DNA from: Vulcanimicrobiota bacterium | GTDB lineage: Bacteria > Vulcanimicrobiota > Vulcanimicrobiia > Vulcanimicrobiales > Vulcanimicrobiaceae | Direction: 5' to 3' | DNA: 64,000 bases | Assembly (NCBI GenBank): GCA_963795855.1 | Contig: CAWCIZ010000002.1 | Location: 32,001 to 96,000, forward strand | In this document: positions 45,701 to 48,700 of the stretch, in pieces | Position numbering within the stretch: the stretch's first letter is position 1 | Layout of the letters: the number at the start of each line of letters is the position of its first letter | Position numbers: made by a program

Positions 45701-48700
45701 TCGAGCTATGAGCCCGGCGGAAGGCGATGCGCGTTTGATCTCGCCGACGATCGCCGGACCCTCGGCGCGCCGGATAGCCTCAAGGAACCGACGCCGCTCG
45801 CGCCTGCGCGCGAGCGCGTGAGCGCGGACTACGTCATACGGCTCACGCAACTCTTCCTGAGCGCGCGCCGCGAGCTTTGCATCGTAAATGCGATGAAGAA
45901 TGTCAACCATGCGAGAACTGCTTTGCGCGCTCGAAGACCGCCGCCGCGCGGCCCTCTTTCAAGAGCGTGCGAGCCAGTTCGATACCCTCCTTCAGACCGC
46001 GTGTGCGTTTGCACACCGTGAACACCAACCCGGCATTGAGCGCGACGACGTCGGCGCTCGGCGATTCTTCACCGGACAGAATACGTTCGAAAGCGGTTCG
46101 GCAAGCTTCGACGGAACCGCCGCGGATTTGCTCGAGCGGCACTCGGATGCCGTAGGCCTCCGGTTCCAGGGTCCAGCGTCTACTCTCGCCCTCGTCGAAC
46201 GTGTACACGGTGGTCGGCCCTTCGCCGCCGACCTCGTCGATACCGCTGGACGCGTGGACCACTGCTGCGGCTCGCACGCCGAGTCCCATCAGCACATCGC
46301 CCATCATTTCAAGCAGCTCCGGCCGGGCAACGCCCACCACTTGATGCGTCGCACGCGCGGGATTGGTTAGTGGGCCGAGCACGTTGAAGATCGTACGCAC
46401 GCCGAGCTCCCGGCGCACGGGACCGACAGTTTTCATGGCGGGGTGATAGCGCGGCGCGAACATGAACGTGAATCCCGTATCCGCGAGCATACGGGCGGCG
46501 CGATCCGGATCGACGTCGATCGCCATGCCTTCGGCTTCGAGCACGTCGGCGCTGCCGCAAGCACTGGACGCTGCGCGATTCCCGTGTTTGGCAACCGGCG
46601 TACCGGAAGCAGCGACGACCAGAGCGGCAATCGTGGAGATGTTTATGGTGTTTGCGCCGTCGCCGCCCGTTCCGACGACGTCCACGACCATCGGCAAGGC
46701 GTGTTCCACATGCAGGCTGCGCTCGCGCATCGCGCGAGCCGCACCGATCACTTCCTCGGTCTTTTCGCCGCTCACCGCGAGCGCAGTGAGCAGTCCTGCG
46801 GACTGCACCGCCGTAAAAGAACCGTCCATGATCGCACCGATCATGGACGCAGCTTCCTGTTGCGTGAGATGTTCGCCGGCGATCAACCGGCGAAGCAAAG
46901 GGGCGTACTCCATTACGAAGTACGCCCCTAAGCTGCGCTCATTATCGAACGAGCTCGAGCAGCGAGAGTTCGGCGGCGTCGCCCGAACGAACGCGCGTCT
47001 TCGTGATGCGCGTATAACCGCCGGTGCGCTCCTTGAGCGCGGGAGCGATTTGCTCGACGAGTTTCTTCACCACGGCGGGCTCGGTGATGTACTCGGCAAT
47101 CAGGCGGCGGGAATGCAGATCGCCGCGAGACGCCTGCGTGATGAGGCGCTCCACGACGCGGCTAACTTCCTTGGCTTTCGTCGACGTCGTTTCGATTTTC
47201 TCGTGTTTGAAAAACGAGGTCGCCAAATTGCGCAGCAGCGCTTTCCGGTGTCCGTCGGTTCGCGAGAGTCTCTTATAGGCGATTTGATGCGGCATTTGTT
47301 TTCCTTTTTAAAGGCGCTCCGGCCTAGCCTGCGCGCCCCCCGCTCAGCGGGGCCCCCAAAATACGGCGCGCATAAACTTGCTACTAACGTGCACCCTCCC
47401 CGAGGGCGCGCCCGATTTTTATTTCTTTATTTCAAGGCGCTCCGGCCTAGCCTGCGCGCCCCCCGCTCAGCGGGGCCCCCAAAATACGGCGCGCATAAAC
47501 TTGCTACTAACGTGCACCCTCCCCGAGGGCGCGCCCGATTTTTATTTCTTTATTTCAAGGCGCTCCGGCCTAGCCTGCGCGCCCCCCGCTCAGCGGGGCC
47601 CCCAAAATACGGCGCGCATAAACTTGCTACTAACGTGCACCCTCCCCGAGGGCGCGCCCGATTTTATGTCTTTATTTCAAGGCGCTCCGGCCTAGCCTGC
47701 GCGCCCCCCGCTCAGCGGGGCCCCCAAAATACGGCGCGCATAAACTTGCTACTAACGTGCACCCTCCCCGAGGGCGCGCCCGATCAGGATTGGCGCAACG
47801 AGAGCCCGCGCTCTTCCAGCACTTGCTTGATCTCGTCCAGCGACTTCTTGCCGAAGTTGCGCATCTTGATGATTTCGTCTTCGCTCATGTCGAGCAGTTC
47901 CGAAACCTTCGAAATTCCCGCGCGTTTGAGGCAGTTGAACGAACGCACCGAGAGGTTGAGCGTTTCGACCGGGATGTCCCATTCGCTGGTCGGAGCGGCC
48001 GGGAGCGGCTTCTCCTCATTCGTGAAATTGACGAACAGATCGAGCTGGTCTTGCATGATCGTCGCCGCGGTCGAGAGCGCTTCGTCCGGCGTCACCGAAC
48101 CATTCGTCTCGATCTCGATCGTCAGACGATCGAAGTCGACGTTCTGCCCGACGCGCGTATCGTCGACCGTGAAATTGACCTTGCGGATGGGCGAAAAGAT
48201 CGAATCCAGCGGAATGAGCCCGATCATGTGCTCGACGTTGCGCTGACGGTCGGCCGTAACGTAACCGCGGCCTTTTTCGATGCCCACTTCCATCGACAGT
48301 TTGGCCGTCTTGGCGGAAAGCGTCGCGATGTGATAGTTCGGATCGAGAATTTCCACGTCGGCATCCGGCGCGAAATCGGCGGCCGTGACGTCTTTCGTGC
48401 CGCCGACGCTCAGCATTAGGACTTTCGGTTCGTCGGTGTTCAGTTTCACCGGCAAGCCCTTGAGGTTGAGCATCAGGGCGATCGTGTCTTCAACGATGCC
48501 CGGAATGGTCGAGAACTCGTGCAGCACGCCGTCGATCTTCATATACGTGACGGCTGCGCCCGGAATCGAACTCAGCAGTATGCGGCGCAGCGCGTTGCCG
48601 AGCGTGATGCCGAAGCCGCGCTCGAGCGGCTCGACGACGAATTTCGCGGAGTTATCCCGGCGCTCGCGTACTTCGATGTTCGCGCCTTGAGGGGTGTCAA

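Follow-up and report, generated by a model that had tools for sequence, protein, structure and literature searches.

The gap between rpoA and rplQ in this Vulcanimicrobiota genome holds four tandem copies of a repeat whose family is real and apparently undescribed. The family is of the MIRU type, bears a signature of single-stranded DNA, has a 5' domain that can be exchanged and brings a Shine-Dalgarno sequence with it. On sequence comparisons, the repeat is probably a non-autonomous, MIRU-like repeat of about 105-125 nt that moved as folded single-stranded DNA and is kept at start codons by translational coupling. The repeat is known in one family of soil bacteria, the Vulcanimicrobiaceae, where it occupies gaps between genes. 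No published description of it was found in the literature searched, which was covered at the level of titles and with most subscription papers outside its scope.

The rpoA-rplQ array and the repeat in genome and family

Coordinates are given as positions in the window, the whole stretch of 64,000 nt that was analysed, in which position 1 corresponds to position 32,001 of contig CAWCIZ010000002.1; gene names by family search were assigned to window genes only. The four copies that the initial annotation had placed in the rpoA|rplQ gap are confirmed: they lie head to tail (window 47294-47784) with a unit of 122-123 nt, spaced by 123, 123 and 122 nt and 94-100% identical to each other. The array lies in sense orientation, on the minus strand, with respect to both the upstream host gene rpoA (47784..48710, TIGR02027) and the downstream host gene rplQ (46942..47295, TIGR00059). 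Copy 1 (47673..47782, minus strand, as are the others) adjoins the rpoA stop at 47784-47786 and is followed by copy 2 (47551..47660), copy 3 (47428..47537) and copy 4 (47305..47414), which adjoins rplQ. Copy 4 consists of a 5' domain of type A (47365..47412, minus strand), with a covarying helix P1 around conserved CCWCGGGGA and a variable loop, and of a conserved 3' domain (47313..47357, minus strand) with a G5C4 palindrome, hairpin P5, helix P6a, a GSA/GNA internal loop containing GGAG, and hairpin P6b, followed by a T/A tail (47307..47312, minus strand). At most other sites, a stop codon lies inside this tail and the downstream start follows. The rpoA|rplQ array does not abut a start: the ATG of rplQ follows 17 nt further on, after a separate AAGGA (47302..47306, minus strand), rplQ's own Shine-Dalgarno-like sequence, which stands 6 nt before the ATG and outside the conserved repeat. 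A similar stop-GGA junction is found at rpoA|rplQ in relatives. Because no ATG overlaps the rpoA stop and rplQ keeps its own AAGGA, the array is an uncoupled insertion.

Further copies are located elsewhere in the window. A full copy with a 41-nt duplicated 5' piece (55897..56044, minus strand) ends 7 nt before the ATG of a short gene upstream of rpsM, at a junction that, from the sequences, we take to be infA|rpmJ. A 3' remnant comprising only P6 follows rpsE (59737..59770, minus strand), an antisense copy without P5 lies between sdhA and sdhB (12591..12685, minus strand), and a sense copy after sdhB (13716..13827, plus strand) ends 7 nt before the ATG of an HdrB/SdhE-like gene. Short 3' remnants directly precede starts in the ribosomal-protein cluster at about 61257-61295 and 63663-63705 (minus strand), where relatives have longer copies. 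The window also contains a group I intron (RF00028) inside the 23S rRNA gene (32288-32635, minus strand), and its rpsD is split over two frames (48816-49473, minus strand), probably by an assembly indel.

Genome-wide, the regular expression of the initial annotation again yielded 35 sites and its reversed pattern none. An iterated nhmmer profile gave 61 matches at 40 places at E<=0.05 and no match at E<=10 on the reversed genome. Our covariance model R1 (built from 62 copies, model length 113) found 64 matches at E<=0.01, falling at 44 places, 12 of them with tandem copies; 37 places are sense between co-oriented genes, 4 are antisense and 3 lie between divergent genes. With gene positions taken from our own rough gene caller in a genome that is incomplete (86%), a start codon was located no more than 11 nt from the 3' helix at 28 of the 44 places, 26 of these at +6 to +8. 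The earlier figures of 69 matches, 48 places, 13 with tandem copies and 31 near a start are therefore close to this recount without being identical, and the number of sense places between co-oriented genes, 37, is the same. A second, unrelated intergenic repeat family was also noticed, with 11 AT-rich copies carrying internal inverted repeats (matched stretches of about 40-180 nt; C2:338500-338736, C2:369305-369534, C3:1056366-1056670 and 8 more, where C1, C2 and so on are contigs of this genome, G000). Contig starts C1:1-4600 and C6:500-5000 of G000 match inverted, reflecting assembly overlap or duplication.

In related genomes, which are non-independent samples, a strict pattern matched 128 of 201 family genomes, left 73 of 201 without a match and gave 0 control matches. 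A 3'-domain pattern was present in 75 of 160 family genomes and in 0 of 90 genomes of 20 other families, which agrees with the family restriction proposed earlier. A scan of sequence collections returned at least 121 stretches. Among the 80 matches listed, most are labelled Eremiobacterota/Vulcanimicrobiota, some 'uncultured', and six records stand under other labels; no mycobacterial record is among those 80. In records labelled Binatia, Limnocylindria and Acidimicrobiaceae, the flanking proteins are 44-72% identical to those of this genome and partly in the same order, which indirectly suggests that these are label problems. Viral contigs gave 0 matches.

The rpoA|rplQ junction measures 6-66 nt and is empty in 29 of 29 relatives, 6 of them of the same genus, and the repeat is therefore mobile, as had been proposed. 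Filled and empty orthologous junctions elsewhere point the same way: among 120 places in relatives, 78 map to junctions that have no recognised copy here (some with remnants), 29 to occupied junctions and 13 remained unmapped, and 85 of the 110 downstream genes at 191 places are represented by a single place. The sense bias is likewise seen in relatives, where 120 of the 155 places with both flanks mapped are sense and 17 antisense. Some sites are common to several genera, which would also be compatible with domestication. The family tallies (strict pattern, rpoA|rplQ junctions, Y1_Tnp, 3'-end pattern, RNase P) include the unpublished genomes G008, G019, G021, G028, G041, G051, G096, G120, G134, G142, G163 and G212; G008 is one of the 29 empty junctions, and unpublished genomes alone carry no conclusion.

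The repeat also occurs inside an RNA gene. Helix P12 of the RNase P RNA holds a type C form of the repeat here and in 2 other genera (3 of 25 parsed genes, of 30 loci), while P12 is only 6 nt long in a genome of the same genus; the earlier observation of the 3' half inserted in this helix thus stands. Copies, mostly of type C, adjoin tRNA genes at loci L025, L026, L151, L211 and L174. At L211, part of a tRNA-like stretch is duplicated together with the repeat, and at L025, the ORF after the tRNA and type C copy presumably resembles the N-terminus of an IS1595 transposase.

Start codons, bridging frames and the internal GGAG

A start codon stands 5-13 nt after the 3' helix at 135 of 214 places. 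Seventeen of 42 empty sites were alignable; in 6 of them the original ATG coincides with the insertion point (5' junction), 8 have a start within 3 nt and 3 have none. At these sites the original ATG usually stays 5' of the repeat, and an ATG recurs 3' of it. When homology was used to place the ends of the upstream genes, 46 of 107 single-copy sites showed an ATG overlapping the upstream stop, compared to 95 of 653 control gene pairs with gaps of at least 60 nt. The frame that begins at the overlapping ATG is open through the repeat in 37 of 46 cases versus 34 of 92 for the other two frames (p=1.6e-6), or 23 of 29 versus 23 of 58 with one site per gene (p=6e-4), and stops within 13 nt of the 3' helix at 30 of the 46 sites. 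A looser test that was not tied to stops gave 30/53 versus 39/88 in a first set (p=0.17) and 26/36 versus 27/57 in an independent set (p=0.03). The remaining 61 of 107 sites, including rpoA|rplQ, have no overlapping ATG. A conserved bridging peptide was rejected, as all three frames are used and no sequence is conserved. This bridging ORF, absent from the earlier reading, offers a reason why the repeat ends at start codons.

The internal loop of the 3' domain carries GGAG, and not GCAG, GAAG or GTAG, in 102 of 113 copies with a following start versus 54 of 101 others. The difference persists in type A alone (71/81 versus 30/56) and when sense copies are counted once per gene (57/65 versus 23/41). 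GGAG is placed 10-11 nt from the ATG, longer than the peak of 5-8 nt in our own rough gene calls, and the 3' end of the 16S rRNA keeps CCTCCT. The suggestion that the repeat supplies the Shine-Dalgarno sequence of the downstream gene therefore has a statistical signal in its favour, but does not apply at rpoA|rplQ with its separate AAGGA.

The two ATG-led ends of the insertions share a prefix of 3.72 nt versus 3.43 nt by chance (p=0.004), so that any duplication would be short and variable. Among 36 such end pairs, 17 share at least 4 nt counted from the ATG, 17 share ATG only and 2 GTG. The longest word shared between the flanks reaches at least 7 nt in 11 of 93 cases (12%) versus 4.6% by chance. 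Flank duplications are thus short and of variable length, one of them of 15 nt; a fixed-length target-site duplication was rejected since the shared words vary in length and position.

Fold and hairpin loops

The conserved 3' domain begins with GGGGGCCCC and continues with hairpin P5, helix P6a, the GSA/GNA internal loop, hairpin P6b and the T/A tail. On 62 sequences, 94.5% of cells pair and 11 of 23 pairs change on both sides; none of 500 shuffles reaches the observed pairing, and slid registers lower it to 34-63%, controls that lean in favour of the structure because it was drawn from the same 62 sequences. Covariation was claimed for four helices, which slightly overstates the case: P1, P5 and P6b covary, but the CC/GG hairpin is invariant and P6a varies on one side only, by G.T wobble. 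A single copy folds no better than its own shuffles (z -0.62). No covarying partner was found for the G5 run, and a pseudoknot of this run with the 5' domain was rejected, as none of the 32 top-ranked covarying pairs joins the two.

The 5' domain is exchangeable and has been swapped between lineages. In type A, P1 surrounds CCWCGGGGA; type B is one long hairpin; types D and E share a stem with tandem GA pairs, with arms swapped between the two. In type C, another GGGGTCCCC-hairpin module follows downstream. The 5' GCGC arm, which types B, C, D and E lack, shows covariation with a partner inside the repeat. The repeat is compact, with several helices and invariant unpaired positions, and accepts 55-nt inserts in the P5 and P6 loops: two modules of about 55 nt are inserted, 4 copies having them in the P5 loop and 3 in the P6 loop, at G000 C3:401379, C4:106520, C4:173644, C4:259927 and C6:61566. 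G.T wobbles are tolerated on the sense strand, which fits RNA or single-stranded DNA alike.

Of 151 copies, 92 carry DNA mini-hairpin loops in P5 (C-GNA-G 50, C-TTT/AAA-G 27, C-TNC-G 15), while RNA-type GNRA (4) and UNCG (1) loops amount to 5 of 151, and 6 are gCUUGc. Terminator-like hairpins of the same genome show none of these triloops in 101 cases and GNRA/UNCG loops in 13; other perfect stems have such triloops in 6 of 365. TTT/AAA triloops and paired GNA loops are DNA-type motifs. So is GCGNAGC, which is described in a review as an exceptionally stable DNA hairpin, with a much weaker RNA form of GCGAAAGC, and such DNA hairpins occur at single-stranded origins and the N4 promoter (PMC13037366). 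The presence of these loops in 92 copies suggests folding as single-stranded DNA, and from the statistics we infer that selection probably acted on the folded single strand. Because ViennaRNA DNA parameters do not separate the triloops, the DNA argument draws on the loop statistics and the cited review. Thus, the view of the repeat as primarily a structured RNA was not upheld.

This bears on the reading that the repeat is a domesticated cis-acting RNA module, a processing, stability or protein-bound translation element kept by the host at operon junctions, with spread being secondary. The sense bias both here and in relatives, the tolerated G.T wobbles, the GGAG enrichment and the sites kept across genera all agree with such a module, as does the orientation of the repeat: at several places with a weak GC skew suggestive of lagging-strand genes, it matches that of the gene. 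However, RNA-type loops are rare, sites are mostly lineage-specific, the strict pattern is absent from more than a third of the family genomes, antisense copies exist and the 5' domain is exchangeable. We therefore regard an RNA module as possible, though unlikely.

Related elements and mode of movement

Tandem arrays are a trait of MIRUs, for which we know of no described mobiliser. MIRUs are described as mobile repeats whose insertions lie at start codons and whose internal ORF is coupled to the host gene (PMC12548453); they measure 40-100 bp, with 40-50 copies per genome and tetranucleotide direct repeats (PMC3184786). The present repeat resembles them in having 40-50 copies per genome, intercistronic location, GC-rich internal inverted repeats, empty and filled sites, insertion at starts and an ORF inside the unit that is coupled to flanking genes (PMC3184786, PMC12548453). 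This likeness, which bears out the MIRU analogy drawn in the initial annotation, concerns described features and not sequence. The tens of intercistronic copies are mostly co-oriented with their genes (37/44 here, 120/155 in relatives), and an ORF overlapping the flanking stop and start is found at a subset of sites (46/107, 37 open), not at rpoA|rplQ. Unlike the 40-100-bp mycobacterial units, the repeat belongs to another phylum, spans 105-125 nt and has no fixed 4-bp direct repeat; it has two domains with an exchangeable 5' part, an internal GGAG under apparent selection, mini-hairpin loops and an RNase P RNA form. Calling it a new class was too strong, because start-codon insertion with a coupled internal ORF is described for MIRUs (PMC12548453).

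REP, BIME and REPIN sequences likewise form GC-rich extragenic hairpins as single-stranded DNA, and their mobilisation is believed to occur in trans (PMC6006769, PMC3733652). Unlike REPs with their RAYT (TnpA-REP, a Y1 HUH enzyme), the repeat is three times longer and tied to starts. The REP foot tetranucleotide GTAG/CGTC (on hairpins of 21-65 nt) is absent from its consensus, and none of the 21 Y1 HUH loci in the incomplete family genomes is flanked by it; on these features, REP identity was rejected. Rickettsia palindromic elements, which also occur in RNase P RNA and tmRNA genes, are a looser analogue. They share the interspersed arrangement, the size of 100-150 bp and the proliferation by lineage (PMC1779305), but insert in frame inside proteins, whereas the repeat sits between genes at starts. 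Bacterial MITEs (ERIC, Correia, RUP) are also small, structured, intergenic and without a coded transposase (PMC3184786); MITE identity was rejected since the repeat has neither true terminal inverted repeats nor a fixed target-site duplication.

We searched for a cognate enzyme among Y1, RT, IS110, TnpB, DUF559, GIY-YIG and tyrosine recombinase genes and found none in these genomes, all of which are incomplete. Y1_Tnp (PF01797) is absent from this genome and present in 9 of 201 family genomes, none of this genus; the repeat is not beside any of the 21 Y1 loci of those 9 incomplete genomes. Y2_Tnp had 0 matches in 121 genomes and none in control genomes either, so that this search is uninformative. 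DUF559 was found neither here nor in 5 relatives. RVT_1 is absent here and present in 1 of 5 copy-bearing relatives, with no repeat nearby. IS110 occurs in 1 of 5 relatives, TnpB in 3 of 8 genomes of the genus and tyrosine recombinases in 8 of 8; GIY-YIG has 2 matches in this genome. No repeat was detected in 23 Y1/GIY loci or in 38 RT/IS110/TnpB/integrase loci, where one weak G5C4 match (E 0.27) was inspected and judged not to be a copy.

For the favoured MIRU-like repeat, we propose that a putative enzyme acting in trans copies it as folded single-stranded DNA, and that start codons are where it lands or where it survives. Translation from the old initiation site would then run through the repeat and yield a non-conserved peptide of 35-50 codons, and the passing ribosome would melt P6, expose GGAG and re-initiate on the host gene. 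Such an insertion would be nearly neutral, so that the repeat could persist in essential operons. Tandem arrays and fragments may arise by hairpin-induced slippage or repeated insertion.

A related account, which we consider rather unlikely, is a single-stranded-DNA element without a transposase of the families searched, where a host or undescribed enzyme would read the G5C4/GNA-loop 3' domain and target starts directly. It would install a coupling cassette of bridging ORF, sequestered Shine-Dalgarno sequence and stop-start junction that is kept at some core operon junctions across genera. Retro-type copying, in which a reverse transcriptase would act on an RNA and leave the 3' end fixed and the 5' ends truncated, could explain the constant 3' end with its T/A tail, the many 3'-only fragments beside full copies, the sense orientation and the short duplications of variable length, but appears improbable, given the rarity of RVT_1 and its distance from any repeat, the DNA-type loops and the existence of 5'-only fragments too. 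It is very improbable that misassembly turned a single copy into the four-copy array. Indel errors such as the split rpsD and the identity of copies 2 and 3 would allow it, but copies 1 and 4 differ in their spacers, arrays with differing copies exist in other genomes, and the repeat family would stand even without this array. A self-cleaving ribozyme punctuating operons, a possibility raised initially and in keeping with the compact, multi-helix form and invariant unpaired positions, is least probable of all, as no Rfam family reached its gathering score (the best was a chance tail match, E 3.1), the 5' domain is not conserved across lineages, and cleavage by a 3' domain lying inside RNase P RNA P12 in three genera would cut an essential RNA.

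For MIRU-type elements, the mode of movement and the reason for ending at start codons have long been open questions, and the repeat provides an independent case in a distant phylum. It comes with hundreds of filled and empty sites and two clues: the loops of DNA mini-hairpin type, suggestive of a single-stranded DNA intermediate, and the enrichment of GGAG where a start follows. Its tandem arrays could serve as typing markers. If coupling holds true, the repeat would be a natural cassette of bicistronic design, through which selfish DNA can reside in operons for ribosomal proteins and ATP synthase.
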